Position numbers and translations under genes: made by a program. The notes beneath the pieces were generated by a model. It had not been told where the DNA came from, searched no databases, and saw only the letters and a program-made list of their open reading frames with translations. A stretch of DNA of 64,000 bases, from sequence record OK283619.1; one strand, given 5' to 3'. The stretch comes from Escherichia phage LPEK22. This document shows positions 30,922-54,343 of the stretch, piece after piece (within the stretch, counting starts at the first letter, position 1; every line of letters begins with the position of its first letter).

Positions 30922-30936
30922 AGAGAGAACTACATC

Positions 30937-31383: not shown

Positions 31384-31394
31384 GAGATTAATAT

Positions 31395-32570: not shown

Positions 32571-32638
32571 TTTGTTCTAAACCATTTGAACGGGTATGTT
32601 AAAATCATACCCAACCCCTACAAATAGAGGACTATAAC

Positions 32639-32956
32639 ATGGCTTGTAAAACACCAGAAATGAAATTAGTTGTTTCGTCAAAGGGACGTCGCAGCCGCAG
32701 TCGAAATCTCATCACCCGTTTAGATATTCTACGTCAAAAATATCAAGGTCACAGCGTGTTCACGCGCATCCGTAACGCATTAAAGGAAGGGCGAACCGAG
32801 TTGGAGCTATATCGTCCAAACGGTTCGACTCGTGCGTATCAGACCACCGACGGTTTGCTGGAACTGATCCGCCTCTCGGGAATGAGCATAGAACCTCGTT
32901 CATCAGGGACTCCCTTGTGCAGCCTGTATGTAATCGGCAATCTTGGGGCGCTGTGA
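32639..32956 (+). CDS. Hypothetical basic protein (105 aa)
   Basis: ATG with RBS agagga. Confidence 0.45.
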   Translation: MACKTPEMKLVVSSKGRRSRSRNLITRLDILRQKYQGHSVFTRIRNALKEGRTELELYRPNGSTRAYQTTDGLLELIRLSGMSIEPRSSGTPLCSLYVIGNLGAL

Positions 32957-32961
32957 GTTCT

Positions 32962-33384
32962 ATGAAGAAGTATATCGTTCTTATAACGGGTTCCCGTTCT
33001 ATAACTGAGCGGGATAAAATCTTCGCCAAACTGGATGAACTGTTAGATCCCCACGAGATCGAAACTTTTATAGAAGGTGAAGCGGTTGGTGTGGACTTGA
33101 TATCTCGTGATTGGTGTGAAATCAATTATGTCCATGTTACACCAATGGAGATCCCTAAGAATTATCACACGATATATGGGAAAGGCGCAGGAAACCAACG
33201 TAACAAAGATATGTTAGACAAAGCTATGACCCTGGCCAAACAAAAAGGTCTTGAGGTCTTTGGAATTGCATTATGGGATGGTTCGTCTACTGGGACGCAA
33301 GACATGATTACCCGCATGAAAAAAGCAGGTGTCAATGTCAATATCACTCTCATGGGCAAACCCAAAACCAAACGATTGTTATAA
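32962..33384 (+). CDS. SLOG / DprA-like Rossmann-fold protein (DUF2493-like), 140 aa, tentative
   Basis: MKKYIVLITGSRSITE...IETFIEGEAVGVD...GKGAGNQRNKDM resembles the SLOG (Smf/DprA/LOG) fold pattern. Recognition by eye only. Confidence 0.4.
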   Translation: MKKYIVLITGSRSITERDKIFAKLDELLDPHEIETFIEGEAVGVDLISRDWCEINYVHVTPMEIPKNYHTIYGKGAGNQRNKDMLDKAMTLAKQKGLEVFGIALWDGSSTGTQDMITRMKKAGVNVNITLMGKPKTKRLL

Positions 33385-33418
33385 ATATGTTTGCCTTCAC
33401 ACCCATATGGAGTTAGCT

Positions 33419-33589
33419 ATGCTGCAATTAATTTTGATTCTTTGCGTCGCTTTTACCATGTACTTTCTGGCGCGAATCAGTTATATCACACTAAATGATC
33501 TGAAAAATACACCACGCGAACCTAAATTTATATTTCTAAAGAAATACACCAAAAAGTTCTGCGAGAATTTTATCTATCATCTTCCGTGA
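33419..33589 (+). CDS. Small hydrophobic membrane protein (56 aa)
   Basis: One predicted TM helix (LQLILILCVAFTMYFLA). Start uncertain. Confidence 0.25.
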   Translation: MLQLILILCVAFTMYFLARISYITLNDLKNTPREPKFIFLKKYTKKFCENFIYHLP

Positions 33590-33590
33590 T

Positions 33591-33618
33591 TATAAATACC
33601 CCCAAAATTGGGGGTATT
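33591..33618 (+). promoter_or_regulatory. TATAAATA late-promoter-like box fused to a 9-bp-stem hairpin immediately upstream of the ATG at 33621
   Basis: tataaataccccc aaaatt gggggtattt. Arms aataccccc / gggggtatt. Confidence 0.45.
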
Positions 33619-33620
33619 TT

Positions 33621-34349
33621 ATGAACGCACAAATCTACGATGTCCTTTCCTCTGGTAATGCATTTAGCAACCCGCTTCCGTCCCTCTCCGGTCCCTCACA
33701 GGATTTAATCACCAGTGGTAGTACCAATATACCATTGATAACTGCCAACGCGACTCCGGAGATGCAGGCGGCTATGGTTGCTGGTGGACTAACACCAGAA
33801 AAACTCACAGCAGCCACCACCATGTATAGCGCCGCCAACACGGGGATAACGACACTGAACACATATGGCGACCAAAGTATCAATGACGCGTATTCTCGCA
33901 TCGGTACTTCCGTGTCATACAAATCAGGTCTGAAGGGTATATCACGAGAGCCAAACAATTGTGATTTGATCAACAAGGCTTTTGGTGTTGTTCAGGATTT
34001 AGGACGCCAATGGCTGAATGCTATGGAAGGTGCTCTACAGACCGTAACAAACAAGATATCGGAATTGTATGACATGATTATGGAAGGTGCCTCAGAAGGG
34101 ATGGCAAAACTACAGCAATTGGCTGCTGAAGTAACAGGACATATCAATGAGGCAATAACCGCAGTCAACGGGGTTATAAGTGATATTACAGATGGTATAG
34201 CCGCAGAACTTGCTCACATTGAAAGCATGATCAAAGAATGTCTAAACTTCTCTTTTGCGAATGTTCTTGGAGAATGGGCTAAAGATCTCTGTGCTGGAGG
34301 CGTTATTGATAAAATAGGGACTCCAGAATTAAAAGAGTCCCTGAAATAA
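33621..34349 (+). CDS. Hypothetical protein (242 aa)
   Basis: ATG immediately after the TATAAATA plus hairpin element at 33591-33618. Confidence 0.5.
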   Translation: MNAQIYDVLSSGNAFSNPLPSLSGPSQDLITSGSTNIPLITANATPEMQAAMVAGGLTPEKLTAATTMYSAANTGITTLNTYGDQSINDAYSRIGTSVSYKSGLKGISREPNNCDLINKAFGVVQDLGRQWLNAMEGALQTVTNKISELYDMIMEGASEGMAKLQQLAAEVTGHINEAITAVNGVISDITDGIAAELAHIESMIKECLNFSFANVLGEWAKDLCAGGVIDKIGTPELKESLK

Positions 34350-34970
34350 TTAATGTCTAGCGGGGAGAACTCCCACTGGTTCGATACCTTCCATCACCAG
34401 GGAGTTCACCCCAACATCACTCATTCGAATCCATACTTTACCGCCTGGTCTTATTTCATAGATGTTCATTTCATTACCCACAGCAGATCCATTAACGAAA
34501 ACACCCTGAGTGGCAATTCGGATCGGAGATTTGGTGTTATTAACTATCTGAAATGATATTGCAACGTCTCTGGTGATTTCTACGTCCCTTGCTTGAGTAT
34601 TCCTTCTGAGTTTGTCAAAGAAAGAAGGGTTGAAAGTCGCTATGATGCTATTATTCTGAGAGTAATAAATACTTGCGGATAGATATGGGATCTTTCCTTC
34701 GTCACCTTTCCTCAATAGGGGAATCGTGGTTTTCCAGTATGGTCTCAGTGACTGGTTGTTATCATCAAAACAACCAACAGCTTGAAGAGTCTGGAAGTTC
34801 TGAAAATCAGATACTACTTGATTCAGAATATTTTTATTGCATTTATCAATGTCGGCTGAGATGTTAACAGGTATGGTTCTGATTTCAGGATCCCAGAGGT
34901 CGGTTACAGAAATGACGGACGTGACAAAGATACGGCAACTTGTGAGTGCAAGCACCATTATCATCGTCAT
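34350..34970 (-). CDS. Hypothetical secreted or membrane protein (about 206 aa), antisense to the flanking genes
   Basis: Minus-strand ORF. ATG at 34970 gives a hydrophobic N-terminus (MTMIMVLALTSCRIF). The track start at 35048 is a TTG. Confidence 0.4.
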   Translation of the reverse strand: MTMIMVLALTSCRIFVTSVISVTDLWDPEIRTIPVNISADIDKCNKNILNQVVSDFQNFQTLQAVGCFDDNNQSLRPYWKTTIPLLRKGDEGKIPYLSASIYYSQNNSIIATFNPSFFDKLRRNTQARDVEITRDVAISFQIVNNTKSPIRIATQGVFVNGSAVGNEMNIYEIRPGGKVWIRMSDVGVNSLVMEGIEPVGVLPARH

Positions 34971-35033
34971 GATCCATTTTCTGAATCCGCGTATCAGGAA
35001 CACTAAAACGTTCTCCACAGCAAAGGTGCTAAC

Positions 35034-35531
35034 ATGACAGGTGTACAATTCAAAAACGAAAATCCTAATTTCGCGGCTTCCGATAAATGGCGCTTAACTA
35101 TCGGAGACCTGATATTGCTTACTCGTTCAATACATGACTTCAGTATTCCTGGAGTGTATTCTGAAGGTATCGAGGGACCATCCCCTGGCGATGTGCTCAA
35201 CTCCATACCTTCAGAACGTCTCACGTATGACCCCATCGTATTTACGTTCGTTATCGATGAGAGTTGGTACAACTGGGAACAGATTTACAATTGGATTGCG
35301 TCCAATGCTGGATCTGATTTAGCTGTTAGCCGTGACATCACCATCGACCTTCTTGATAACATGAATCGCCCTGTTGGTCTACAATTGTTGTTGGAAGAAG
35401 CCCGTCCCACAGCTTTGGACAACGTATTGGTGGATGTGGATGCTGCGGTTCCCCAACTGGTCACGACTGTCACGTTCAAATATTTGAAACTGACTCCGAC
35501 TCGCGTCACCCGCGAAATTGATAAACAATAA
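35034..35531 (+). CDS. Hypothetical protein (165 aa)
   Basis: ATG with RBS aaggtg. Confidence 0.5.
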   Translation: MTGVQFKNENPNFAASDKWRLTIGDLILLTRSIHDFSIPGVYSEGIEGPSPGDVLNSIPSERLTYDPIVFTFVIDESWYNWEQIYNWIASNAGSDLAVSRDITIDLLDNMNRPVGLQLLLEEARPTALDNVLVDVDAAVPQLVTTVTFKYLKLTPTRVTREIDKQ

Positions 35532-35569
35532 GTTATAATACAGAGAGTTGAAACAGCAGGGAATAAATC

Positions 35570-36025
35570 ATGAGCGAAACAAAACTTGAAACGATGAAAA
35601 CCGAAGATATAATGGCAGAATTGGAGCCTCTTATTTCGGTAAATCCTGAAGACATGAACTTAGACCAAATGTCATTGAAAATTGGTCGTTCGTGGATGAC
35701 TGTGCAACGCCATTATATTCGTGAAGGAAGATATCTGGAGTATCTAACTGGCAAATTCCGCCAAATAGATCTCTATTTACGCCGATTTTATGCAGGGGAA
35801 TTGCCGCCCAACGTTTATGTTGAACGCCCATTAAAAGTTCGACCCCTGAAATCTGATATAGATGTATGGGTAAAAGCAGATGATGATTATATCGAATTGT
35901 CTAGCATGCTTCAAGAGCAGAAAGCCAAAGTCAAGTTCATCGAAAGTTGCTTAGATCGTTTGAACAAACTCGGATATGAAGTGAAGAATGCTATTGATTG
36001 GCGAAAATATTTGGATGGGATGTAA
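35570..36025 (+). CDS. Hypothetical protein (151 aa)
   Basis: ATG with RBS caggga. TAATG overlap with the next gene. Confidence 0.5.
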   Translation: MSETKLETMKTEDIMAELEPLISVNPEDMNLDQMSLKIGRSWMTVQRHYIREGRYLEYLTGKFRQIDLYLRRFYAGELPPNVYVERPLKVRPLKSDIDVWVKADDDYIELSSMLQEQKAKVKFIESCLDRLNKLGYEVKNAIDWRKYLDGM

Positions 36026-36771
36026 TGGTTTCTCTACAGGCTTTGCGCAAACTTAATGACTTTGAAAATCGTCATCATACATTTCAGCAATATTCCTTGC
36101 CGTTTAAGGAACTGACTTGCGTAACTACCGAAAATGGTCGTCACTATGTTTCCCCCACTGGAGTCAAACTAACTTCAGTGACGACCATGTTAGGGCGTAC
36201 TGGTGACCACACATGGTTAGAAGCCTGGCGGGACAAGTTGGGGCATGAAGCTGCTGATATAGAAACACATCGTTGCGCAGACCGTGGGGAAAAACTTCAT
36301 TTGGCTTGTGAGTTGTATCTCAAAAACAGACCAATGAAGGAAGTTCTGGAAGCTGCAGGGGAATACGTGTTTATGTTCAAACAGGTTTTCCCCTACCTTA
36401 ACAAAATGAGCAAGATATATGCACAAGAGATTCCATTATATAGCGAAGTCCTGGGTCTTGCTGGTCGTGTTGACCTCATCGGGGTTTACGAAGGAATTCC
36501 AAGCATAATCGATTTCAAAACATCTAACACCCTAAAAACTCGAAGCATGATAGAAGATTATAGTATTCAATTGTGTCTATACTCAGTCATGTTTCAACAA
36601 ATGTTTAATGTCAAGATAGAGCGTTTAATCAATATTATATCCAACGAAAATGCCCTTGTTCCCACCATAATCGAATTCGATCGCAAAGACGTTATTTCTA
36701 AAATGTTTGACCGTGTCCGTCTGTATCACAAAATGAACAAAGAACAGAACGGAATCTGGGCGGATCGCTAA
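36025..36771 (+). CDS. PD-(D/E)XK family nuclease (RecB/Cas4-like exonuclease fold), tentative
   Basis: GRVDLIGVYEGIPSIIDFKTS fits the D...(D/E)xK catalytic core. ATG at 36025 overlaps the upstream stop. Confidence 0.55.
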   Translation: MVSLQALRKLNDFENRHHTFQQYSLPFKELTCVTTENGRHYVSPTGVKLTSVTTMLGRTGDHTWLEAWRDKLGHEAADIETHRCADRGEKLHLACELYLKNRPMKEVLEAAGEYVFMFKQVFPYLNKMSKIYAQEIPLYSEVLGLAGRVDLIGVYEGIPSIIDFKTSNTLKTRSMIEDYSIQLCLYSVMFQQMFNVKIERLINIISNENALVPTIIEFDRKDVISKMFDRVRLYHKMNKEQNGIWADR

Positions 36772-36774
36772 ATA
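36768..36774 (+). promoter_or_regulatory. Late-promoter-like motif upstream of uvsW
   Basis: gctaaatactc, about 27 nt before the uvsW ATG. Confidence 0.4.
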
Positions 36775-36800
36775 CTCCATAATATTGGGGGAAATTAGTG

Positions 36801-38300
36801 ATGTCTGAGATCCAAATAGTCAAAGTGAACGAAGTTAGAATGCGGATCCTTACCGAGGATTATATCCGTGAAGAACTCAACGATTACTTCAAATTTGAAG
36901 ATCCTAATTTCCAACCGAATCCGTTCAGTAAATGGGACGGCGTAGTGCGGCTGTTCACAAAGAGTTCTGGGCTTATCGACATCGGCCTGTTATTTGAGGT
37001 GTTCAAATTCTGTAAGATGAACGGTTACACCATCAAATTAGATCCGACCTTAAAATATATTCAAGATATTCCGGATGAAGAAATTCATGCGTTCATCGAT
37101 ACATTGAATGCGGTGTACCGAGACGAAAACAAACAATATCAAAAAGCGATTGTCCGCGATTATCAATTTGATTCTGTTGCCACAGCAATACGCCAAAGCA
37201 GATGTGTCCTCGAAGCTGCCACGAGTGCTGGCAAATCCTTTATTTTGTACATCATGGCGCGTTACTACAGGCAACGCAGAGATGCCCTCGAAAGTAATCT
37301 GAGGACGTTAATTGTTGTACCATCCATTCATTTGGTGACTCAGTTGTATGACAACTTCGAAGAATATAGCCACGGGACAGAATGGAAGCCATTGATGAAC
37401 GTCCAGACAATATACGAAGGGGCAACGAAAGAGATTTTCAAACCCATAGTTATTTCAACTTGGCAAGGTATCCAGAACCAACCCAAAGAGTGGTTCCATC
37501 AATTTGGAGATATCGTCGTCGACGAAGTACATACATCAAAATCAGATAAATTGTCTTACATCTTGAACAACTGTATTAACGCTGATCAACGTTTGGGAGT
37601 AACCGGAACCCTGGCGAATACAAAGGTCGCAGGGTTACAAGTCGTTGCTCACTTTGGCGCATATCATAAAATTATTACAGCGCGCGATTTAATCGATCTA
37701 GGATATGCGGTAGACATCAATGTTAATATGATTGAAGTCATACATCCTATGGCAGACTGTATTGAAATGCACGGTGCTGAGTATCAAAAGGAAATAGAAT
37801 TCCTCATTGCTAACGAACGCCGCAATGAATTGATAGCCCGAATGGCTCTATCTTTGAAAGGGAACGTCGCAGTCATGTTCGAACGTATCGATGCACACAT
37901 GATGTTGGTTTATGAAATGCTATCGGCAGTCAAGAAAAACGTATTCGTCATCAACGGGGAAGTCAAGACAGAAGTTCGTAAACAGATTCAGGCTGCTATG
38001 GAAGAAGGGGAAGATATAACACTGTTGGCATCATATGGTACTATGCAACAGGGCGTATCTATCAAAAAACTCCATCATCTGATATTGGCCCATCCCAGCA
38101 AATCTTATATCCGTGTTATACAGACATTGGGGCGTTTGATGCGCCAGCATTCCTCTAAGGATGTTGCGCGAATCTGGGACCTGGTAGACAACCTGCGTTA
38201 CAACGGTTCCTACAACCATGCTCTCAGGCATTCTCATGAGAGATATAAATTTTATCTTATGGAGCGCCACCCTGTTAAAATGAAAAAAGTGGCGCTCTAA
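36801..38300 (+). CDS. uvsW: UvsW-like DNA helicase
   Basis: KWDGVVRL, ATSAGKSF (Walker A), STWQGIQNQPKEWFHQFG, DEVH, ASYGTMQQGVSIKKLHHLILAH, QTLGRLMR and WDLVD align along the length with T4 UvsW as recalled. ATG at 36801 (track start is GTG). Confidence 0.9.
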   Translation: MSEIQIVKVNEVRMRILTEDYIREELNDYFKFEDPNFQPNPFSKWDGVVRLFTKSSGLIDIGLLFEVFKFCKMNGYTIKLDPTLKYIQDIPDEEIHAFIDTLNAVYRDENKQYQKAIVRDYQFDSVATAIRQSRCVLEAATSAGKSFILYIMARYYRQRRDALESNLRTLIVVPSIHLVTQLYDNFEEYSHGTEWKPLMNVQTIYEGATKEIFKPIVISTWQGIQNQPKEWFHQFGDIVVDEVHTSKSDKLSYILNNCINADQRLGVTGTLANTKVAGLQVVAHFGAYHKIITARDLIDLGYAVDINVNMIEVIHPMADCIEMHGAEYQKEIEFLIANERRNELIARMALSLKGNVAVMFERIDAHMMLVYEMLSAVKKNVFVINGEVKTEVRKQIQAAMEEGEDITLLASYGTMQQGVSIKKLHHLILAHPSKSYIRVIQTLGRLMRQHSSKDVARIWDLVDNLRYNGSYNHALRHSHERYKFYLMERHPVKMKKVAL

Positions 38301-38305
38301 CCATT

Positions 38306-38671
38306 TCAAAGATCTTGGTTCACATAGGCGGGGGTTGCCTCGCCTTCTTTGTTGGAACCAAATAAACAGTCGATCGTGCCAATACATTGTTGTAGCACTT
38401 TCGGCTCAAGAATCTGAGAAAACAATTCTTCATTAGATGCCAGCAGTGGAACAACTTTCACTTCCCGCGCCTGGCCTTGTTGAATAATGCCAACATACAG
38501 ACCTTTGTTATTTGGGAGTAATGGTATCACCAACATCGGTGACACAATAAACCCCGATGTACAGAAAAGACTTTGTAAATAAACGCCTTTTAATGACGGA
38601 CGTTGTTCTGCTATGGAAAGAATTACTTCTTGGTCTTCCCCTACTGCGTATAAACCAACAAATTGCTTCAT
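38306..38671 (-). CDS. Hypothetical protein (121 aa), minus strand, divergent from the clamp gene
   Basis: ATG on minus strand, convergent with uvsW. Function unknown. Confidence 0.45.
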   Translation of the reverse strand: MKQFVGLYAVGEDQEVILSIAEQRPSLKGVYLQSLFCTSGFIVSPMLVIPLLPNNKGLYVGIIQQGQAREVKVVPLLASNEELFSQILEPKVLQQCIGTIDCLFGSNKEGEATPAYVNQDL

Positions 38672-39010
38672 ATATTATTTCTCACGTGTTAGCAAACTTG
38701 ACTACATAATAATGTCATGTTCTGTTTAGACCAAATAAAATATTTTAATTGTTGAATAAAAATCGCTTTCTTGTTGAACAATCCGTGCGTAATATACGAG
38801 TTGTGAGCTTTGCGAGCAACGAGTATTATCACGAGCGAAGCGAGTAGACTGATAAAGAAAGGTTTTATTAAAACAGAATATTATAAATGCCGTCAGGCAT
38901 TTATTTATCGCGCGTAGGGCAATTTATCACTTGTTCTATAACTACAAACACGCGATACTAATTTGCGTCAAATATGACTTGAACCCCACTATATTTTGAG
39001 GATACAACTA
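38672..39010. promoter_or_regulatory. Long AT-rich divergent intergenic region (about 340 bp) with short direct repeats
   Basis: Largest non-coding gap in the window. Lies between the divergent minus ORF at 38306-38671 and the clamp gene. Contains TTGTTGAA twice and a cluster of ACGAG/GCGAG repeats at 38796-38844. Confidence 0.4.
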
Positions 39011-39679
39011 ATGCAAGAGATCACTCTCTCCGAACGCACTTTACAACTGCTGGCTAACTTTGAAACCATCTGCCCCTCTATCGTTCTGGCACCTGGTAAA
39101 AAGTTGCGCACTGTTAACGATTCCAGTACAGTTATCGCTATTGCCGACATTGACGAAGACTTCCCGTTCGAATTCCCGATTCTGGATCTGACCAAATTGC
39201 TGGCAATCCAGCGTCTGCCGAGTTTTAAAGGCGGTAAAATTGAAATGTCGGAAGACCACATTTTGCTGAAAGGTGAAAACTCCCAACTGCAATTCTGGCG
39301 TTCCGCTAAAGAACTGACTGTCGTTCCGGCAGACAGCATCGATCTCCCGTCTGTAGAATTTGAAGCAACAGTCACTCCTGAAAAAATGAAAGAGCTGACC
39401 CGCGCATGTTCTACTCTGGGCCACAAAACTGTACGCCTGGTTGCCAGCGGCGGTAAAACTCGTCTGGTGGGCACGACCACTACTATCGACAATTCCAACG
39501 ATTACACTGTTGAGTTGGGTGAAACAACTCTGGGTGATTTTGCTATGCCTGTTGATGTGGTCAACCTGAAAATGATCGAAGGCAACTACGTGATCCGCGC
39601 CTGTGCCGAAATGCAACTGGTTAACTTCCAATCCGCAGACGGCACCATCAACTATTACGTCGGCATGCAGCTGGATTAA
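39011..39679 (+). CDS. Sliding clamp, T4 gp45-like
   Basis: LQLLANFETICPSIVLAPG parallels T4 gp45 (LLKNFATINSGIMLKSG). ATG at 39011 with RBS gagga (track start is TTG). Lies upstream of the clamp loader. Confidence 0.8.
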   Translation: MQEITLSERTLQLLANFETICPSIVLAPGKKLRTVNDSSTVIAIADIDEDFPFEFPILDLTKLLAIQRLPSFKGGKIEMSEDHILLKGENSQLQFWRSAKELTVVPADSIDLPSVEFEATVTPEKMKELTRACSTLGHKTVRLVASGGKTRLVGTTTTIDNSNDYTVELGETTLGDFAMPVDVVNLKMIEGNYVIRACAEMQLVNFQSADGTINYYVGMQLD

Positions 39680-39708
39680 TCAATAACGATTCGGCGCTTT
39701 ATTATCGG

Positions 39709-39740
39709 TGGCGGGGGTTTCCCCGCCCTTTGAAACGTTT
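39709..39740 (+). terminator. Hairpin, possible attenuator or terminator between clamp and clamp loader
   Basis: gcgggggtttccccgc hairpin followed by an interrupted T-run. Confidence 0.45.
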
Positions 39741-39757
39741 TATCTAAAGAGGCTGCA

Positions 39758-40747
39758 ATGTCTAACATCACTATCGTCACAGATCAATACGCGTGGGAAA
39801 ACAAATATCGTCCTGACAATCTGGATGAGATCGTCCTCCCTTCAGACGTCCGTGCAAAAATCCATGGCTATGTTACATCAGGCAATGGAAACATCCCCTC
39901 AATGCTGTTCTATTCCCCTCAGCCTGGTACGGGCAAGACTACTTCTGCTCTGGCTGTGTGTAACGAAATCGGTTGTATCAAACCGTTGATGATCAATGCG
40001 TCACTGGATAACAGCATTGATGTCATCCGTGACCGTGTTATTCAATACGCAACTGGCGTCAGTGTTTTCGGTGGCCGCAAAGTCGTTATCCTCGATGAAG
40101 TTGAGCGACTTTCCATGGCGGCGCAGGAATCCCTGAAAGGCATCGTAGAGAAAGTCTCAAAAAACTGCTCCTTCATCCTGACGACTAATGCGAAACAGCG
40201 CGTTAACGAACCTCTGCGTTCCCGCTGTCGTGAAATTGATTTTATCTGGTCTGAAAAGGAAGCAGATGAAGTTAAACTTCAATTCATGCGTCGTTGCGCA
40301 ACTATCCTGACAGAGGAAGGCATTCCGTATGAAGCTGGTGTAATTGCTTCCATTGTGAAATCATATTTCCCAGATAATCGCAAAATTATGGGAACTCTTC
40401 AGGATAATGCCACCACGTTTGGTAAAATCGATGAACGCGCTCTGGCACAGGTTAAAGCAGGGGAATTCCAAGCGTTGGTGGATTTCCTAAAAACCAATGA
40501 TTGGGCTGGGATGAAGCAGTGGGTGACCGACAACCAAAACTACATCACTGAAGATTTTTATTCCCGTTTCTTCCATTTCTGCGTTCCCCAGAACAAGGAA
40601 AAGACTCCTTTGATTCAAAACGAGTCAATCCCTGATCTGGTATGCGTATGTGGTCAGTCTCAGATTGAACATCGTTCCGTCGGCGACGTCTGGTTACACG
40701 GCGTTTACTTCTTGACTAACGTCATGCTCAACATCAAATGGAAGTAA
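39758..40747 (+). CDS. Clamp loader large subunit (AAA+), T4 gp44-like
   Basis: Walker A PQPGTGKTT, Walker B ILDEVERL, RFC-box-like SRC. Confidence 0.9.
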   Translation: MSNITIVTDQYAWENKYRPDNLDEIVLPSDVRAKIHGYVTSGNGNIPSMLFYSPQPGTGKTTSALAVCNEIGCIKPLMINASLDNSIDVIRDRVIQYATGVSVFGGRKVVILDEVERLSMAAQESLKGIVEKVSKNCSFILTTNAKQRVNEPLRSRCREIDFIWSEKEADEVKLQFMRRCATILTEEGIPYEAGVIASIVKSYFPDNRKIMGTLQDNATTFGKIDERALAQVKAGEFQALVDFLKTNDWAGMKQWVTDNQNYITEDFYSRFFHFCVPQNKEKTPLIQNESIPDLVCVCGQSQIEHRSVGDVWLHGVYFLTNVMLNIKWK

Positions 40748-40751
40748 TATT

Positions 40752-41174
40752 ATGGCCGCTCCGTCACTGTTCGATTACCTCGGTGCGTTGAATAGCACCA
40801 AAGAGAATCTGTTGATGACCGAAGACCCCGAAATCAGAAAGGCTTTTGATCCTTTCATGACTCGGCGCGGCCTTGCTCAGAGTAAAGACACGCTTGTGGT
40901 TGCCGAACAAATGAACCGCTTCCATGCCATTACTCCTTGGATGCAATGGAACCTGGCGTTTCATAGCATTCCGGCAAAACGTCGCTATGACAAGTGGTCT
41001 AAGAAGGGAGCTATGGATCCTGATGTGAAATTGATTTCTGAGTATTATTACATCAGTCCTGAAAAGGCTTCAGAATATGTTCGATTCCTGCCGAAAGAAG
41101 TCCTGGCTGAAATCAAGGCGAAGGTCGAACGTTCCAACAGCAACGAAAAAGCCAAACCGCGCAAGGCTAAGTAA
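40752..41174 (+). CDS. Clamp loader small subunit, T4 gp62-like
   Basis: IPAKRRYDKWSK parallels T4 gp62 (VPRGKRYGKWAK). Position immediately after the gp44-like gene. Confidence 0.7.
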   Translation: MAAPSLFDYLGALNSTKENLLMTEDPEIRKAFDPFMTRRGLAQSKDTLVVAEQMNRFHAITPWMQWNLAFHSIPAKRRYDKWSKKGAMDPDVKLISEYYYISPEKASEYVRFLPKEVLAEIKAKVERSNSNEKAKPRKAK

Positions 41175-41203
41175 TTCAAATAATTGTTAAAGGGGTATGA
41201 GTC

Positions 41204-41668
41204 ATGGCGCGTAATACGCTGGACATCTTAAAACTTTCAGCTGTCAACGATGAGGCCAGCATTGTTGACTGTATGGTTGAAGTTCAATTGAACCAAGACA
41301 AACCAGGGATTTTCCTGGGTATCAAGGAAACGCTGAGTCGGATAGGGGTTAACACTCGTCAAGAGCCTAACACCTTGTATCAAACGTGCCATATTCTGCA
41401 TAAATTTGGCAGATATCACATCGTGCATTTCAAGCATCTTTTCATGCTAGATGGGCACTACAACGGCTTTACGCGTGAAGATGTCCTGCGTATGAATCGG
41501 ATTATACGGCTTCTGGAGCAATGGAATATGGTTAAGATCTTGCATCCGGAACAAATAACCGAAGTGGCTGACATGTCTCGGATCAAAGTTGTAAAACATG
41601 ACCAAGTTTCTGAGTGGAAACTGGTTCCAAAATACACCATTCGCCCAAGTCGGGCAAAAAGCGAATAA
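41204..41668 (+). CDS. regA: RegA-like translational repressor
   Basis: LYQTCHILHKFGRYHIVHFKHLFMLDG and EWKLVPKYTI match T4 RegA (LYQSCHILQKKGLYYIVHFKEM, EWKLVPKYTI) as recalled. Confidence 0.85.
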   Translation: MARNTLDILKLSAVNDEASIVDCMVEVQLNQDKPGIFLGIKETLSRIGVNTRQEPNTLYQTCHILHKFGRYHIVHFKHLFMLDGHYNGFTREDVLRMNRIIRLLEQWNMVKILHPEQITEVADMSRIKVVKHDQVSEWKLVPKYTIRPSRAKSE

Positions 41669-41684
41669 CTGGAGTCGCTATATT

Positions 41685-42548
41685 ATGACAACTACATTTA
41701 ATAAAAACGTGAGATTGAATTTGGCTTTTGGTAATGCGGCTGGAGATATTACAGCCCCTGACTTCGGTAAAATTCGCAATCAGGCCAAACTGGTTCTGGA
41801 AGAGACCCGCGAATTACTGGAAGCGGCTTATTTCGATCATGACATCAAACTTGAGCTGGTGGCAACTCCAAAAGAAGACACCGATGATGTTGATATGGAT
41901 AAAATCCTGAAAGCCATCATGGACGCTCAGGGTGATATCACAACTGTTAATGACGGCGTGGCCCATATCGCTGGTTTTAATGGTGATGAATGTTTACAAC
42001 GCGTGTTTGCCTCTAACATGAGCAAATTTATTCGCTCAGAAGATGAAGTCGGTCCGGCACTGGAATATTATTATTCACGCGGTTTCCCAGATGGCCAGTT
42101 ACGCGTTGAAGGTGAATTCCCTCAGGCATGCATCAAAGTGAATGAGACTGTGATGTGGAATGGCAAAGAATATCCGAAAGGAAAATTCCTGAAAAACATG
42201 GCTGTGTTCAAAGAGCCTGATTTCTCTGATATGCTGACGAATACCCCTTCCCGTCAGATCAATGACATCGTTGCCAGCATGGCAATTGAAGAAGGTCAGG
42301 TATTTGTTGATGATATGAACGGCGTGGCGTTGGTATCTCCAAAAACGTTGGAAGTAATTCTTTCTATGGCAGTTGAAAAATCTTCTCGACCCGTAGATGT
42401 TAACGGCCAAATTGAAAGTTATGTGCCAGCGTATATCATTAACGATACCAATATGCCTAAGCTGTGTGGGGTGTGGGGTGCTAATGTTCGTGTATACGCG
42501 TGCGCACCTGTTCAAAACACTGTGACACACCTCTCTCGCTTCGATTAA
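41685..42548 (+). CDS. Hypothetical protein (287 aa); N-terminal region is possibly a MazG/HisE-like nucleotide pyrophosphohydrolase
   Basis: ATG at 41685 with GGAG RBS (track start at 41598 overlaps regA). LVLEETRELLEAA resembles the EExxE metal-binding helix of MazG-type all-alpha NTP pyrophosphatases. Weak. Confidence 0.45.
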   Translation: MTTTFNKNVRLNLAFGNAAGDITAPDFGKIRNQAKLVLEETRELLEAAYFDHDIKLELVATPKEDTDDVDMDKILKAIMDAQGDITTVNDGVAHIAGFNGDECLQRVFASNMSKFIRSEDEVGPALEYYYSRGFPDGQLRVEGEFPQACIKVNETVMWNGKEYPKGKFLKNMAVFKEPDFSDMLTNTPSRQINDIVASMAIEEGQVFVDDMNGVALVSPKTLEVILSMAVEKSSRPVDVNGQIESYVPAYIINDTNMPKLCGVWGANVRVYACAPVQNTVTHLSRFD

Positions 42549-42572
42549 TATAATCCGTTATTCACTAAACAA

Positions 42573-42600
42573 CAGAGGCTATAATGGCCTCTGTTTTTGT
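42573..42600 (+). terminator. Rho-independent terminator
   Basis: cagaggc/gcctctg stem with tataatg loop, followed by tttttg. Confidence 0.7.
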
Positions 42601-42617
42601 ATTCTAGAGAGGATACC

Positions 42618-43823
42618 ATGAAAGATAAACCACATGACATCCCATATTGCGGTGTCCGTGAAACCAAAATCAAATCAGCCCATCCTATGTTAAGTTCATT
42701 CCACCGCCAGCTGGCATATGAATGGATGAGGGATCGTTATGCGATACATGTCAAGAAGGACGTGCAATGCCTTCCAGCGCCATGGACGGATAATCCGGTA
42801 TTACGCCAAGTCAAGTTTTGTAACGTGCGGAGAGAGCACGATAGGCAGTCTCGAAATTTGATCAATAATATCATCCTCGATCAGGATCTCACGCTATCTG
42901 ACAAAATGTTCAACTGTGTATTGTTCCGCATGTACAACATGTGGGAACCTATACAGGCTTTGGGTGGTCCATGGACGATCGAAGAATTCGGAAACATAAA
43001 TCTTGAATGGTGTCGAGATGTTCTTCAGGAATTCGAATCTAAAGGTGGCAAAGTTTTCACCAATGCGTTTAATACAGGCGGTCTGAAACAATGCCTGGCT
43101 TTCCCTGAACTAGTTGTCAACCACAAGGAGCAACGCTTTGGCGGCATGAAGGTAAAAGTCCATCGGGTTGGCGGTGTTATAGATGAAATGGATTACAAGG
43201 TTGCCAAGAAGCTGGCCGAAGATAATCCTGGTGAATACAAAATAGAAGGCTGGGAACCATACATGCCGATGCGAGTCATCCGCTCTTTGAAGGCATTCGT
43301 CAACAAACACCCTCATTACTTTGATCGCCTCAGGGAATTTAGCCGTCCCGACTCTGTTTACCAGGCGATGTATGACGACATTGAGGGGCTTGGACCATTC
43401 TTGGCATACCAGATTTGGGTTGATTTTACATACATCGATGAATATCCATTCAGTGAAAACCACTTCACTATCGCTGGTCCAGGTTGCCGTGCTGGTATCG
43501 ATCTGTTATTTTTGGACAAGGACGGCATGACGCATGAAGAATGCATATTCTGGGTTCGTGATCATCAAGATCAATTGTTCGCTCAGTACGGGTATAAACG
43601 TAATGAATTTTGGTCGGCAGAAGAACCGGAAGACCGTTGCATGAATGTTATGCAGTTGGAGAACATGTTCTGTGAACTTCAGAAATATACCCGCTGCGTT
43701 GAGGCGGTGATGCGCGGGGAGAAACCTCGAGGAAAGGTGGGGTATAATGGTGGTGAAGTTAATCAGCCATTACAGAAGACTCCCGTTCGTTCTATTAATC
43801 TGTTAGAGAAGATGAAAAAATGA
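42618..43823 (+). CDS. Hypothetical protein (401 aa), unassigned enzyme-sized ORF
   Basis: ATG at 42618 with RBS agagagga (track start is TTG). No P-loop, no thymidylate-synthase or ThyX motif seen. Confidence 0.55.
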   Translation: MKDKPHDIPYCGVRETKIKSAHPMLSSFHRQLAYEWMRDRYAIHVKKDVQCLPAPWTDNPVLRQVKFCNVRREHDRQSRNLINNIILDQDLTLSDKMFNCVLFRMYNMWEPIQALGGPWTIEEFGNINLEWCRDVLQEFESKGGKVFTNAFNTGGLKQCLAFPELVVNHKEQRFGGMKVKVHRVGGVIDEMDYKVAKKLAEDNPGEYKIEGWEPYMPMRVIRSLKAFVNKHPHYFDRLREFSRPDSVYQAMYDDIEGLGPFLAYQIWVDFTYIDEYPFSENHFTIAGPGCRAGIDLLFLDKDGMTHEECIFWVRDHQDQLFAQYGYKRNEFWSAEEPEDRCMNVMQLENMFCELQKYTRCVEAVMRGEKPRGKVGYNGGEVNQPLQKTPVRSINLLEKMKK

Positions 43824-48858: not shown

Positions 48859-49029
48859 ATGACCAAACCATTTTTGCGTTCAGGAGTTGACTCTCTTGAC
48901 TCACAGTTTAAACCCAGCGAAGTTTTAATCCAACAGATTGAAACTAATCGCGAATTCATAGAACACATGCTGGCGAAGCCGGAAGGTGAAGCCGTCCATA
49001 CCACTAAAGAAGGTAATAACGATGATTGA
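48859..49029 (+). CDS. Possible small ORF (56 aa)
   Basis: ATG with RBS aaggga. Overlaps the start of the vWA gene. Under 60 aa, so absent from the track. Confidence 0.2.
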   Translation: MTKPFLRSGVDSLDSQFKPSEVLIQQIETNREFIEHMLAKPEGEAVHTTKEGNNDD

Positions 49030-51238
49030 ATCATTAACATTTAAGAATGCGGTTGCGACCGTCGCGCCGTCTAACCATGTAATCGTTGTGGATATCTCCG
49101 GTTCCATGTATCGTTCACTTCCAGAAGTCCGTAAGCATCTGAAGGAGAACCTGCCTTCCCTGGTGAAACCGGAAGATACTGTGAGCATCCTTTACTTTTC
49201 ATCTCGCGGTGATTTCGGAACGGTATTTGCCGGACGTCAGATTAACAGTGCAACTGACCTCAGTGAGATCAATAATCTAATTGACCGTTTCCTGAAGCCT
49301 TCTGGTTGTACTGGTTTTGTTGAGCCGCTGAAACTGGCTGCGGAAACTGCCATTAGCCTGAATAAACCTGGTTATGTTAACAACCTGGCATTCATGACCG
49401 ACGGGTATGACAACTGCTGGCGTTCTAATGAAATCCTGGATGCCGCTGAAGTACTGCCCAAAGCGTTTGATAACATTACCTTCATCGAATACGGTTGGTA
49501 TTGTAATCGCGAACTGCTGGGGCTAATGGCAGAACGTTCTGGTGCGACCCACGTATTCGCCGAAGGACAGAATGAATATCAGACCGAATTGGAAAACGTG
49601 CTGAAAACTTCTTCACCGAAAGTTGTAGTCGATGTTCCTCTGGTTTATACCCATGCCATTTATGTTGAAAATGGCGTGGCGACTGTTTTAGCTGTGCATC
49701 CTGATGAAGAGCACCCTATTGGCCACGTCAGCATCCCTGAAAGCGTTTCTCAGCTGTGGGTTGTAAACCCCAACATGATCGACCAGCTGGATAATCTGGC
49801 AGACATCCAAGCGGCATACGTGCTGGCATTTTACGGCGTGTATACCATGGACGCCGATCTGGTCTGGGCCGCGCTGAAGAAGACGGGTGACGTCCGCTTC
49901 ATCAAACAGTACAGCAACTGTTTCACCAAGCAGGACTATTCCAACATCAAAGTCGATCTGACTCAGGCTATCGTAGACGAATCTCTGCGAGGAGTTGATG
50001 GCATCGATTATAATATGGTTCCGGCTGAAGACGCCACCACCATTGTTGATGTTCTGACGTATCTGGCTGAAGCAGATGTCTCTATCGTCACCAAGCATCC
50101 ACTATTCTCTTACAAGAGCATTGGGCGCGGTACTGTACAGAAAGTTGATGACACCGAAGACAAGTTGGCCGAAGAGATTGCGAATGCGACTTCTAAAGAA
50201 GAGCGTAAAGCCCTGGCGCTCAAACTGGCCGAGCACGAAGATTGGACCCCCGAATTCAATCCGGTTGATGATAAAGGGATTGTCCCGATCAGCAATTTGG
50301 TCTACAATTCAGAACGTCCTAACATCAGTGTGCAGACAGTTCAACACGGAACGGTTGTTGTGCCTGAGTTTGTACAGAAGAAATATGAACTTCCTGAAGA
50401 GCTGGGGACCTGGCGTTATCGCAATTACACCATTGTCAAGGATGGTATCATCAACCTGAAAACAATGCCTATCACTGCAGATTCTCCGATTGTTCGGGCT
50501 AAGGTGGCACAGGATTTGACTGCCATGGGTGTTCATGTGTTTGGTGGACCGGAAGTCTTCATTGTAAATCTGGAAAGTGTCCCAATGGTTAACCGCGCCA
50601 TGACAAAGAATATCAGTGCTGCTGAATTCTTTGCAGACAATGTGCGCCGTGAAGCATTGAAGGCAAAACAGAAAGTTCTGAAATTCTACCGTGATGAACT
50701 GGTTGGTAAAGGCAACGCTACTGGTCTGGCTTCAAAATATGGCAAAGAAGCAGCTGATTTCCTGTCAGCAAACGGAATTCGCGACTATGGATTTTCACCG
50801 AAGACTTCTTCTGTAGAATCAACCGATGTCTATATGAGTCGTGAATTGAATGTGAAAATCAAAGGCGCATCTTCACTGCCGAGCATCGCGTCTGTTATCA
50901 AAAAACAGACGGACGGTAAAAAACTGAATGTCGCTGATCAGCTGATCGCTAATGCCCTGGCTGAATACAATGCATTTGTTAAATCGCCGATGATCACCAG
51001 CGTACCGGAAGAGACTCAGAAAAAGCTGATTGAAAGCTGGATCGGAGACGCAGCAAAAGCGGCCATTAACGAAGTCCGCGCCCTGAACAAAACGCTGTCC
51101 AAGGTAGTTTATGGGATTGTTGCAGGCCATGGTTGGTTTACCGACCTGGATTTGGAAGAATCCACTATGGATGTGGAAGTTGATGGGGTGAAATACACCG
51201 TCACTGCCGAACTGGCTGAAAAAGAAGTCAAAATCTAA
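49022..51238 (+). CDS. von Willebrand factor A (vWA) domain protein with MIDAS motif (738 aa)
   Basis: ATG at 49022 with RBS aaagaaggt (track start is GTG). N-terminal VVDISGSM...FMTDG fits the MIDAS pattern (DxSxS...T...D). Long C-terminal region unassigned. Confidence 0.7.
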   Translation: MIESLTFKNAVATVAPSNHVIVVDISGSMYRSLPEVRKHLKENLPSLVKPEDTVSILYFSSRGDFGTVFAGRQINSATDLSEINNLIDRFLKPSGCTGFVEPLKLAAETAISLNKPGYVNNLAFMTDGYDNCWRSNEILDAAEVLPKAFDNITFIEYGWYCNRELLGLMAERSGATHVFAEGQNEYQTELENVLKTSSPKVVVDVPLVYTHAIYVENGVATVLAVHPDEEHPIGHVSIPESVSQLWVVNPNMIDQLDNLADIQAAYVLAFYGVYTMDADLVWAALKKTGDVRFIKQYSNCFTKQDYSNIKVDLTQAIVDESLRGVDGIDYNMVPAEDATTIVDVLTYLAEADVSIVTKHPLFSYKSIGRGTVQKVDDTEDKLAEEIANATSKEERKALALKLAEHEDWTPEFNPVDDKGIVPISNLVYNSERPNISVQTVQHGTVVVPEFVQKKYELPEELGTWRYRNYTIVKDGIINLKTMPITADSPIVRAKVAQDLTAMGVHVFGGPEVFIVNLESVPMVNRAMTKNISAAEFFADNVRREALKAKQKVLKFYRDELVGKGNATGLASKYGKEAADFLSANGIRDYGFSPKTSSVESTDVYMSRELNVKIKGASSLPSIASVIKKQTDGKKLNVADQLIANALAEYNAFVKSPMITSVPEETQKKLIESWIGDAAKAAINEVRALNKTLSKVVYGIVAGHGWFTDLDLEESTMDVEVDGVKYTVTAELAEKEVKI

Positions 51239-51244: not shown

Positions 51245-51272
51245 CTGGCGGGGAAACCCGCCTTCATTTTGA
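51245..51272 (+). terminator. Rho-independent terminator
   Basis: ggcggggaaacccgcc hairpin plus ttcattttg. Confidence 0.7.
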
Positions 51273-51275: not shown

Positions 51276-51593
51276 ATGCTTATGTCAAACAAACCAACTT
51301 ATGTTGAAGTAATGCGTGTTCTGGCTCAGTACGCTTGTGACAACCTGAACATGGAAACCTGGCGCAACGGGGATCACAAGGACAAGTTTGATAACATTGA
51401 TGATAATATCGATGCTTTAGCGCCGTTACGGGTTAAGAATGATCTCGGCGGTGACGATCTTGACATGATTGAGCTGGTCATGGAAATCGAAGAAGAGTAC
51501 GATGTAGAAATTAGTGACGAGTGGGTGGGTAAACATGGAGATGATCCTACCCTCGGAGAGTTAGCTGAACTCGTCGTTGTTCTCTGCAAATAA
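51276..51593 (+). CDS. Acyl-carrier-protein-like protein lacking the phosphopantetheine-site Ser (Ser to Asp)
   Basis: DLGGDDLDMIELVMEIEEEYDVEISDE aligns with the ACP helix II region ([20 protein letters not shown]..EIPDE). The position of the conserved Ser is Asp. Confidence 0.6.
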   Translation: MLMSNKPTYVEVMRVLAQYACDNLNMETWRNGDHKDKFDNIDDNIDALAPLRVKNDLGGDDLDMIELVMEIEEEYDVEISDEWVGKHGDDPTLGELAELVVVLCK

Positions 51594-51964: not shown

Positions 51965-52023
51965 TTCTATAAATTATGGCGGGGTATGATTACCCCGCCG
52001 ATTTGAAATGCAGGAACTATACC

Positions 52024-52479
52024 ATGACCCGTATCAATGTTATTCCCGTTGAATCTCTTTGCGACCAACACCTCCTTGCCGAGTACAAAGAACTTGCGCC
52101 AGTTGTCCTTAACGTGGTGAATGGAAAACGCCGTAATCTCAAGGGCGCTCCAAAGCAGTACAAACTCAACGAAGGTCATGTGCTGTTCTTCCGCGACAAA
52201 CTCATTTATCTGATCGAGCGCTACGATCAGCTTGTTGCCGAACTGATTTCTCGTGGGTATGTTGTCAACTATCCTTCGCTCCGCAATCAGGTGACGTCTG
52301 ACAATCGACAGGAACTCGCGATCTATTTGAACGATTACCAACCGACCCAGGCAGCAGTAGAAGAGAATGCCGAGCGCATTGTCGAACGTCTGAATGGCAT
52401 GGGCAAGATCACGTATAACAGAACACCAGTAGATCCATCCTACATGGTGAACGTTATGAAACAAACATTCCAATTTTGA
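52024..52479 (+). CDS. denV: Pyrimidine-dimer DNA glycosylase, T4 endonuclease V (DenV)-like
   Basis: N-terminus MTRINVIPVESLCDQHLLAEYKEL parallels T4 DenV ([24 protein letters not shown]). ATG at 52024 with RBS (track start upstream is an alternative start). Confidence 0.85.
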   Translation: MTRINVIPVESLCDQHLLAEYKELAPVVLNVVNGKRRNLKGAPKQYKLNEGHVLFFRDKLIYLIERYDQLVAELISRGYVVNYPSLRNQVTSDNRQELAIYLNDYQPTQAAVEENAERIVERLNGMGKITYNRTPVDPSYMVNVMKQTFQF

Positions 52480-52491: not shown

Positions 52492-52770
52492 ATGACAGAT
52501 CAAAGAAGTATTGCTCGTTCGGAAATCAAAGATATTATACAGAGCAAAACCAACGAAACTCATGCTCAATCCAGAATGCTATCTCGATTTGTTGAAATTA
52601 AGTTTGACATTGAAGAGAATAACAATCGGAGAGCGCTGGAGGGAATGTTGGCGATTATCTTGGGCCATGTCACCAATTCAGCATACGACATGGATGATTT
52701 AACTCGTTTGTTGAACGCCCAGAATAACGTTGGGAATTCTGTTCGCGAATTGCTGTTTAAGTCCGAATGA
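52492..52770 (+). CDS. Hypothetical protein (92 aa)
   Basis: ATG start. Confidence 0.4.
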   Translation: MTDQRSIARSEIKDIIQSKTNETHAQSRMLSRFVEIKFDIEENNNRRALEGMLAIILGHVTNSAYDMDDLTRLLNAQNNVGNSVRELLFKSE

Positions 52771-52807
52771 ACTAACTAAGGGATAATCCTATATCCCGAG
52801 GTGTGTC

Positions 52808-53257
52808 ATGTTCCTTACATCCTTTATTGACTGGATGAATATCATAAATGGCCTGAGGATTCCTGTTGGGAACCTCGGGCTTTCTCGTTCTTCTATGCCG
52901 CAAATCGATGCCGACAAACAAGAAGATTTTCACAAATATCTTGAAGACAACGGCGTGTCCATAGATGCTGCGCAAGTGCCCATCAAAATGCTTCGTCTTA
53001 CCCAGAACGAAATCAATAAAATGAAGGTCTGGAAGATTATGAAGCAGATCAGAAATAAGAAGCCCATGGGTCGAGTTTGGGTGTCTTCTGACAATTACGT
53101 TGTTGACGGGTCTCACCGATTTGTCGCTGCGTTGAACATGGACGGCAAACAGCGCATGAAGGTCTACAAAGTTGATTTGCCAGCGATGGAATTTGTTAAA
53201 CTCGCTAAACAGTTTCAGGGTGTGCGATACAGAACGGTCAGCGATACCCGTTTCTGA
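52808..53257 (+). CDS. ParB/Srx-like nuclease-domain protein (149 aa), tentative
   Basis: VVDGSHRFVAA resembles the DGxHR core of the ParB N-terminal domain. RBS gaggtg. Confidence 0.45.
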   Translation: MFLTSFIDWMNIINGLRIPVGNLGLSRSSMPQIDADKQEDFHKYLEDNGVSIDAAQVPIKMLRLTQNEINKMKVWKIMKQIRNKKPMGRVWVSSDNYVVDGSHRFVAALNMDGKQRMKVYKVDLPAMEFVKLAKQFQGVRYRTVSDTRF

Positions 53258-53336: not shown

Positions 53337-54026
53337 ATGAAACGTTTAATCATCGGGGTTGTGCTGGCTGGTCTGGCACTTCCTGCCACCGCCAAGCTGA
53401 ACTCCACAGGTGAAAAACTGTGGTCTGATCTTTCCTACTGTGCTGGGTTCTCCCAAGCCGTCGCTATAGACAAAACTGGTTCCATAGAGAACTTTGCTGA
53501 ACTCTGGACCACAGGTAATGTCACAGATGCCGTTGTAAATGCTGGTATTGAGTTTAATCGATATAAGCAAGGCGCGTTCAACCTGAAAGGATATATGAAC
53601 GACAAAGAATTTAACCGAGGAGGCATGGAGGCTGGCGATCTTATTATGACTGGTCGTATGGGTACACAAGGACGAATGACCGTAAGACAGTGCCGTTCTC
53701 TTCCTTCTCCAGCATTACAAAAAGGTGTGCAGGTTGGCCGACGTCAGCTGGATCTCATCAATGATGGCAACCAATGCATCAAGGTGTTTGAATATAGTGC
53801 CGACCAAGAATCAGATCGACGTTTGAAAAAGGAATGGCGGACTCGCGCCCTTGGCCTGAGAGCATGGCTGGTGGAAAATGATCATTATTATGAAGACCGT
53901 GTTCAGAATGGTTTGAAAGATCTTTCCACTAATTTGTCTGTCAATCTTGATGATCCAAGGCTTTCCCGTGAACTCAAGCAAACAAGAATTGACTGTGATA
54001 ATATGATGAAGGAGAACGAAAGATGA
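53337..54026 (+). CDS. Secreted / periplasmic protein with signal peptide (229 aa)
   Basis: ATG at 53337 after RBS aaggaga. N-terminus MKRLIIGVVLAGLALPATA is signal-peptide-like. Confidence 0.5.
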   Translation: MKRLIIGVVLAGLALPATAKLNSTGEKLWSDLSYCAGFSQAVAIDKTGSIENFAELWTTGNVTDAVVNAGIEFNRYKQGAFNLKGYMNDKEFNRGGMEAGDLIMTGRMGTQGRMTVRQCRSLPSPALQKGVQVGRRQLDLINDGNQCIKVFEYSADQESDRRLKKEWRTRALGLRAWLVENDHYYEDRVQNGLKDLSTNLSVNLDDPRLSRELKQTRIDCDNMMKENER

Positions 54027-54343
54027 AAATCAAAATCTTATTGTTATTCCTGTGCACTTTCATGTCTTCCCAAGTATTGGCAGCTCCGGCCAGTAAGTTG
54101 AATATTTGTGCTGCTTGGTTGTCTACATATCAACAATTCCATCCGGATGATAAGGATACATCAATTCTTTTATCTGATTATGAAGGTGAATTGAAACGCC
54201 TTGATCTCTATAGTGTGGACCAGATAGAGAATGCGCTTGATTTATCTATGATGGAATCTGCCGCAGACAACAGCAAACAGACTATTAAAGATCTGACGAT
54301 GTGTCGTGAAATTGCAACTAATTTCGTTGGAAATCAAAGATAG
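54023..54343 (+). CDS. Small secreted protein with signal peptide (106 aa)
   Basis: MKIKILLLFLCTFMSSQVLAAP signal-peptide-like. RBS gaaggag. Confidence 0.45.
   Translation: MKIKILLLFLCTFMSSQVLAAPASKLNICAAWLSTYQQFHPDDKDTSILLSDYEGELKRLDLYSVDQIENALDLSMMESAADNSKQTIKDLTMCREIATNFVGNQR

Follow-up and report, generated by a model that had tools for sequence, protein, structure and literature searches.

The subject of this analysis is a small gene in a 64,000-nucleotide stretch of DNA from Escherichia phage LPEK22 (sequence record OK283619.1). This whole stretch, called the window in the following, comes from the genome of a Kuttervirus, a Vi01-like member of the Ackermannviridae. The gene is an open reading frame (ORF) on the plus strand, which begins with an ATG at position 52808 and ends with a TGA at 53255-53257. 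It codes for a stand-alone protein of 149 amino acids (aa) with a ParB/sulfiredoxin (Srx) fold, and orthologues of this protein have been detected in purified virions. The first-pass annotation had delimited the same ORF and had drawn attention to the segment VVDGSHRFVAA, and both are confirmed as described. The segment corresponds to residues 98-108 (nucleotides (nt) 53099-53131). The protein is 100% identical to gp192 of Salmonella phage Sajous1, and its ortholog in Dickeya phage LIMEstone1 is ORF101 (83% identity). A 2.5-kb stretch around the gene shows 99% identity to Salmonella phages heyday and BSP101, with 275 phage records matched. The features of the gene and of its surroundings are listed in Table 1.

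The motif DG.HR has three occurrences in the six-frame translation of the window and is not significant by itself. Gene and motif are considered real because they are conserved. Forty homologues were retrieved (E-values from 5e-93 to 5e-24), and 21 were aligned, with identities down to 39%. Throughout this alignment, the complete motif (D100, G101, S102, H103 and R104) is invariant, as are L64, Q66, N67, E68, N70, K71 and K73. A further invariant block is found in the N-terminal region (P19, G21, L23, R27, M30, P31 and Q32). When 49 diverse members of the family are aligned, R27, M30, P31, Q32, Q66, G101 and H103 are still invariant, and D95 and D100 are conserved in at least 90% of the sequences. 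The consensus of these 49 sequences reads ...LGIxRxxMPQI...LxxTQxEIN...VSxDxYVLDGHHRW.... Position 102 is a His in most of the wider family, and Ser102 is peculiar to the Ackermannviridae-type branch. In the comparison with the LIMEstone1 ortholog, the ratio of nonsynonymous to synonymous substitution rates (dN/dS) is 0.059, with synonymous sites near saturation. Two minus-strand ORFs overlap the gene (52772-53116 and 52930-53094). They were disregarded because conservation, the low dN/dS and the peptides detected in virions (see below) all belong to the plus-strand frame.

Table 1. The ParB/Srx-fold gene, its parts and its neighbours (positions refer to the window)
Feature	Position	Strand	Remarks and basis
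Coding sequence, stand-alone ParB/Srx-fold protein	52808..53257	+	17.3 kDa, isoelectric point (pI) 9.9; homologues, PHROGs, dN/dS 0.059
Shine-Dalgarno-like GAGGTG	52797..52802	+	5 nt before the ATG; read from the sequence
N-terminal amphipathic helix, aa 2-15	52811..52852	+	FLTSFIDWMNIINGL; predicted secondary structure
Family-specific RxxMPQ motif, R27-S-S-M30-P31-Q32	52886..52903	+	invariant in the 21- and 49-sequence alignments
ParB/Srx core, ~aa 60-135	52985..53212	+	strand, LTQNE, helix, strand, strand-DGSHR-helix, strand, helix
First active-site motif, L64-T-Q66-N-E68	52997..53011	+	Q66 invariant family-wide; alignments, PDB profile alignment
Second active-site motif, D100-G-S-H-R104	53105..53119	+	counterpart of GERR (ParB), GCHR (sulfiredoxin) and DGHHR (SerK)
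VWA-domain protein	48986-51238		750 aa
Acyl-carrier-protein (ACP) homologue	51276-51593		PP-binding, E 4e-7
79-aa ORF			between ACP homologue and denV
denV	51976-52479 as listed		Pyr_excise, E 5e-13
92-aa ORF	52492-52770		between denV and the ParB-fold gene; phrog_4458
i-spanin/o-spanin pair	53337-54026, 54023-54343		next after the ParB-fold gene

The ParB/Srx-like fold that the first-pass annotation had proposed is borne out by structure prediction. An AlphaFold2 model computed from the 21-sequence alignment is confident, with a mean pLDDT (predicted local distance difference test) of 81.9 and a pTM (predicted template modelling score) of 0.76. Its structure matches come from the ParB/Srx superfamily only (pNOB8 ParB-N, sulfiredoxin, SbnI, SerK, PadC, KorB, Noc, ParB and Atu1540). 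About 81-94 of the 149 residues, roughly 60-135, can be superimposed on these structures. The first ~58 residues are an addition, so that the RxxMPQ region is not covered. DGSHR occupies the place of the equivalent motifs of ParB/Srx proteins (Table 1). With an alpha/beta core and a Gly-x-(H/R)-R phosphate-binding motif at the strand-helix junction, the protein clearly belongs to the ParB/sulfiredoxin superfamily. Matches from BFVD show full-length similarity, with template modelling (TM) scores of 0.7-0.9, to both stand-alone and embedded viral proteins, which UniProt labels 'ParB/Sulfiredoxin domain-containing'. By eye, the segment SMPQID-helix-strand (aa 29-58) resembles LTQNEI-helix-strand (aa 64-92). 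The N-terminal module and the beginning of the core (nt 52886-53011, aa 27-68) may thus be two copies of one unit, a hint of internal duplication.

Sequence searches are less telling. Among PHROGs, the protein matches phrog_2859 (E 3e-45), a family of unknown function with a profile of 740 positions, of which 316-467 are aligned, and there is a weak match to a ParB-like phrog (E 0.0016). The single sequence matches no Pfam or NCBIfam model up to E<=10. This includes ddrB-ParB and also ParBc, the Pfam profile of the very domain to which the motif had been compared initially, so that this check was negative. PADLOC models of anti-phage defence proteins gave no match at E<=1. A phmmer search of the PDB with the single sequence returned nothing relevant, and a search with the 21-sequence profile returned only chance matches, mainly von Willebrand factor with a common 'DGSH'. 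With the 49-sequence profile, nothing in the PDB was significant (E 0.11-0.4). The best non-repeat matches were SerK (E 0.11) and 1VK1 from P. furiosus (E 0.2). In these profile alignments, the TQ and DGHHRW motifs coincide (LkltQ vs MKPHQ; DGhHRW vs DGHHRW). Q66 is aligned with position 30 of free serine kinase, the residue that is changed in the E30Q/E30A crystal entries. 1VK1 and pNOB8 ParB-N are also reported as structural matches of proteins from two sister phages, presumably orthologs (supplement of PMC10892097). Both UniProt and a 2024 paper already give this fold label. The signature and the breadth of the clade, to which we now turn, are undescribed so far.

A profile search against 1.84 billion cluster representatives yielded 4870 clusters (50% identity) at E<=1e-3, of which 2275 reach E<=1e-10. 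The common layout is an N-terminal module of ~45 residues with the invariant RxxMPQ, followed by TQ and then by DG[HS]HR. Many members are stand-alone proteins of ~150 aa, and many others are embedded, sometimes twice, in proteins of 300-2400 aa. The N-terminal helix is present in stand-alone homologues but lies mostly beyond the domain boundary in embedded copies, which start at about profile positions 14-23. Domain architectures were surveyed in the best 150 representatives, 69 of which are multidomain. Their fusion partners include P-loop kinases of the Zeta-toxin (9 proteins) and AAA_33 (5) families, cytidylyltransferase-like domains (4), PolyA_pol nucleotidyltransferase (2) and RelA/SpoT (2), and further HINT, GNAT, ADP-ribosyltransferases, Acb1 and Mu portal. 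ParBc is not present among the 25 most frequently matched families of these 69 proteins. At least 12 of the best 150 representatives have two copies of the domain. An example is a metagenomic protein of 831 aa (P0054), in which a Zeta-toxin/AAA_33 kinase domain (439-584) lies between one copy at 293-426 and another at 684-824.

The domain is also part of giant phage proteins. Gp31 of Pseudomonas phage vB_PaeM_USP_25 (4899 aa) has a copy at about residues 790-900 (tblastn E 1e-7; phrog_11358 positions 790-899). This protein also contains N6_Mtase, an SF2 helicase (ResIII/Helicase_C), LPD23 and ART-PolyVal, and its gene lies between structural genes and holin/lysis genes. In the record, it is annotated merely as 'hypothetical protein' (28132-42831). 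The mosaic of ART-PolyVal, LPD, methylase, helicase and kinase domains in which the domain is found is that of the polyvalent-protein repertoire. A DarB-like giant protein of the Bcep22-like phage type is virion-associated in phage JC1 (PMC9144972). For the ParB-fold domains of polyvalent proteins, Iyer et al. (2017) argued that they are injected early effectors that sense or hydrolyse nucleoside triphosphates (NTPs) (PMC5512222).

The stand-alone form is found in Ackermannviridae whose hosts are Salmonella, Klebsiella, Dickeya, Serratia, Erwinia and Vibrio, and also in PhiW-14, RSP15, ACP17 and Aeromonas T4-like phages (417 records). Their gene neighbourhoods vary and include clamp loader and helicase, RNA ligase and rII, tk, dCMP deaminase, and phoH. 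The sole recurring neighbour, seen in three distant phages, codes for a MazG-like NTP pyrophosphohydrolase. It is found directly upstream of the gene in two metagenomic contigs (L008, 2465-3328; L010, 63-923), and a similar gene is found three genes upstream in Vibrio phage 1.255.O. The window has a homologue at 41598-42548 (E 6e-11), ~10 kb upstream of the ParB-fold gene. The MazG-like protein may be a functional partner, or this may be mere conserved synteny. We take it as a lead, not as evidence.

How does this family relate to ParB/Srx proteins that have been described? In terms of function, the DdrB-like ParB domain of polyvalent proteins (PF18763; N-terminus of DdrB from phage P1) comes closest among the concepts described. 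It shares the ParB/Srx fold, is phage-borne, occurs alone or in polyvalent proteins and is packaged into virions, and it was proposed to be an NTP-dependent early effector (PMC5512222). In both cases, an Asp ends the strand before the glycine motif (D95 in the protein from the window). However, DdrB of P1 matches PF18763 at 2.1e-39, whereas our protein has no Pfam match. When the family profile was compared to DdrB with hhalign, the probability was 0.1%. The motifs differ as well, with QPRDR and GNGR in DdrB as opposed to TQNE, DGSHR and the RxxMPQ module. For these three reasons, membership in the DdrB-like clade was rejected.

By sequence and structure, the nearest proteins are SerK, SbnI, 1VK1 and ParBc_2 (PF08857, e.g., Atu1540), although the E-values are not significant. 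The protein from the window does not match the ParBc_2 hidden Markov model (HMM), and six relatives stay below the threshold (best score 22.6 bits, cut-off 23.6). The position of Glu30 in SerK is taken by the invariant Q66. With 149 aa vs ~240 aa, the C-terminal substrate domain of SerK and SbnI is lacking, while there is an extra N-terminal module and a phage and virion context. An assignment to the ParBc_2/SerK-SbnI type thus failed on HMM score, catalytic Glu and C-terminal domain. Compared to sulfiredoxin, there is no cysteine, the wider family mostly has His at position 102, and a peroxiredoxin context is lacking. The CTPase N-domains of canonical ParB, Noc and KorB (ParBc, PF02195) have the same fold, with the glycine-arginine phosphate-binding motif at the corresponding place. 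In contrast, our protein lacks a ParBc HMM match, a helix-turn-helix (HTH) domain, a dimerisation domain and Box III, and no ParA partner is annotated near the orthologous gene. The Bcep22-like, DarB-like giant proteins such as gp31 of vB_PaeM_USP_25 do hold a copy of the domain. There, however, it is one module among methylase, helicase and ADP-ribosyltransferase (ART) modules in ~4900 aa, whereas the protein from the window is free and has its own N-terminal helix. Judged from its sequences, the family is a distinct ParB/Srx clade, which is not detected by the Pfam models used here and is defined by the RxxMPQ N-terminal module together with a SerK-like DGHHR core.

Two proteome studies place the protein in purified virions. 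For LIMEstone1, the table of virion proteins contains an 'unknown structural protein' of 17.31 kDa that was identified with 5 peptides and 35.6% coverage (PMC3296691). We match this entry to ORF101 (calculated 17.30 kDa); the numbering of ORFs differs by one between the paper and GenBank. In GenBank, ORF101 is annotated as 'confirmed structural protein'. For Sajous1, gp192 was represented by 11 spectra in CsCl-purified virions, and the products of the neighbouring VWA and ACP genes by 1 spectrum each (PMC10892097). The ortholog is not identifiable in the text of other Dickeya phage proteome papers (PMC4581121, PMC4372400). Literature searches returned no experiments on ParB-like proteins of Ackermannviridae, nor on the ejection of such proteins.

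Some features of the neighbouring genes should be mentioned. The first-pass annotation had placed the gene just after denV, but a 92-aa ORF intervenes. This ORF has only weak matches that are probably due to chance (BCCIP, E 0.04; PADLOC RmrT, E 0.008). The interval between denV and the ParB-fold gene is a variable spot, as other small ORFs are found there in Sajous1 and LIMEstone1. The start listed for denV (51976) is probably too far upstream: annotated genomes use a gene of 456 nt, which corresponds to a start at 52024, and the Pyr_excise match begins at residue 17. Between the VWA and ACP genes (51247-51262), there is a GC-rich perfect hairpin (GGCGGG GAAA CCCGCC) that has a run of T on either strand and is similar to a bidirectional terminator. 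A terminator is annotated at the equivalent place in LIMEstone1. For the ParB-fold gene, scans for sigma-70-like promoters and for terminators yielded nothing informative. The VWA ortholog was also found in virions (LIMEstone1 ORF108, 6 peptides; Sajous1 gp185, 1 spectrum).

With moderate confidence, we favour the reading that the protein is a packaged and probably injected NTP-binding effector, the stand-alone form of a domain that is otherwise embedded in giant virion-associated polyvalent proteins. It would be made during infection and would be taken up into the Kuttervirus particle at low copy. The N-terminal helix might act as a packaging signal. Most likely, the protein would then enter the next host cell together with the DNA. 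There, a pocket composed of Q66, D95, D100, G101, H103 and R104 is predicted to bind an NTP. The equivalent pocket residues in sulfiredoxin, SerK/SbnI and ParB bind nucleotide phosphates. Q66 is reminiscent of the Box I glutamine that ParB requires to hydrolyse CTP. Early in infection, a nucleotide or nucleic acid would then be the target of a phosphate-directed reaction, which could be hydrolysis, phosphotransfer or NTP-gated nicking.

Several points weigh against this reading. R27 and Q32 would probably complete the pocket, but their placement near DGSHR is a guess. SerK-type kinase chemistry is unlikely because the residue that corresponds to the SerK base is a Gln. The stand-alone gene of distant phages is located amid genes for replication and nucleotide metabolism, not amid structural genes. 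The T4-type late promoter TATAAATA has three sites in the window, which is no excess over chance, and none of them is near the gene. Both virion mass spectrometry (MS) data sets also contain clear non-structural proteins (DNA ligase, PhoH, RegB, SSB), so that the protein may have been carried over into the preparations. As evidence for a location in the virion, the 11 spectra are modest.

Among the alternatives, the one that survives best is a ParB-like DNase, which would nick host or competitor DNA in a metal-dependent and largely sequence-nonspecific manner and would spare the hypermodified-thymidine DNA of the phage. We consider this possible but unlikely. The ParB/Srx fold of the predicted model is compatible with such an activity, and a pI of 9.9 fits nucleic-acid binding. 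Stand-alone homologues are found in Delftia phage PhiW-14 and its relatives. These phages carry hypermodified thymidines, as do Vi01-type phages, but this link to modified DNA is phylogenetically confounded. The equivalent pocket in sulfiredoxin, SerK/SbnI and ParB performs ATP or CTP chemistry, not DNA cleavage. Osa, ParB-methylase and GmrS are ParB-fold proteins that have been reported as DNases or NTPases, but Iyer et al. prefer NTP sensing or hydrolysis, with other DNases never substituting for the domain in polyvalent proteins (PMC5512222). The ties to nucleases and to DNA modification or partition that had been suggested for the gene initially are unsupported. The protein has no HTH or dimerisation domain, no nuclease-specific or CTP-specific signature was found in it, and the contexts of the domain point to a virion-packaged effector module.

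A cytoplasmic enzyme acting on nucleotides or small molecules is a further alternative, and we think it improbable. It would be a SerK/SbnI-like phosphotransferase or an NTPase that works with the MazG-like pyrophosphatase, and its presence in virions would be due to carry-over. In favour of this, both MS data sets contain non-structural contaminants, and the MazG-like gene is a neighbour in the two metagenomic contigs and Vibrio phage 1.255.O and has a homologue in the window. Other neighbours (tk, dCMP deaminase, phoH and clamp loader genes) also fit. The best PDB matches at the sequence level, SerK and 1VK1 with their aligned TQ and DGHHRW motifs, and the sub-threshold ParBc_2 matches among relatives point the same way. 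However, these PDB matches are not significant, an invariant Gln replaces the catalytic Glu of SerK, and 149 aa leave no C-terminal substrate domain. Moreover, the protein was detected in virions by two independent studies, with 5 peptides in one and 11 spectra in the other, well above the single spectra of the VWA and ACP products in Sajous1, and the domain is recurrent in virion-associated giant proteins.

That the protein is an inert structural or decoration component, which merely retains a ParB-like fold, is very improbable. Its annotation as a structural protein after MS detection would agree with this. However, the most conserved residues throughout the family are those of the pocket and of RxxMPQ, not surface or interface positions, and the domain occurs across very different phage morphotypes and inside non-structural multidomain enzymes.

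The proposal that the protein acts on the DNA of the phage as a ParB-type clamp with a CTP switch, or in partition, is close to refuted. The fold is common to the N-domains of ParB, Noc and KorB, and Q66 and G101/R104 presumably take the places that the Gln of Box I and the GERR of Box II have in ParB. However, a partition role is excluded because HTH and C-terminal dimerisation domains are absent (the N-terminal module and the ParB/Srx core account for all 149 residues). Moreover, there is no ParBc match at E<=10, the alignments show no conserved equivalent of Box III (ENxxR), no ParA is annotated in ~8.5 kb around the orthologous gene in two annotated genomes, and a plasmid stage is lacking in this virulent myovirus.

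The packaged, NTP-binding effector could be part of a more specific scenario, which we regard as doubtful. The fusions to Acb1, RelA/SpoT, Zeta-toxin-type kinases, nucleotidyltransferases and ADP-ribosyltransferases suggest that the RxxMPQ + TQ + DG(H/S)HR clade might be a distinct ParB/Srx family, and a new class, of injected counter-defence enzymes, which some phages would carry in the particle as a free protein and others as a module of giant polyvalent proteins. Within minutes after the onset of infection, such enzymes would consume, modify or sense an NTP, an NAD-derived or a cyclic-nucleotide immune signal.

Most genes are unassigned in the Vi01-like (Kuttervirus) phages, which are in wide use as candidates for biocontrol and therapy. 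The ParB-fold gene is a core gene under strong constraint, the product of which travels in the particle. It represents thousands of clusters (at 50% identity) that remained unmatched by Pfam and NCBIfam in this analysis. If the protein is a mere contaminant of virion preparations, it would be one more uncharacterised ParB-fold accessory gene product. If it is injected and enzymatically active, its 149 aa would make it a small and tractable model in which to study the ParB-fold modules that giant polyvalent phage proteins contain.
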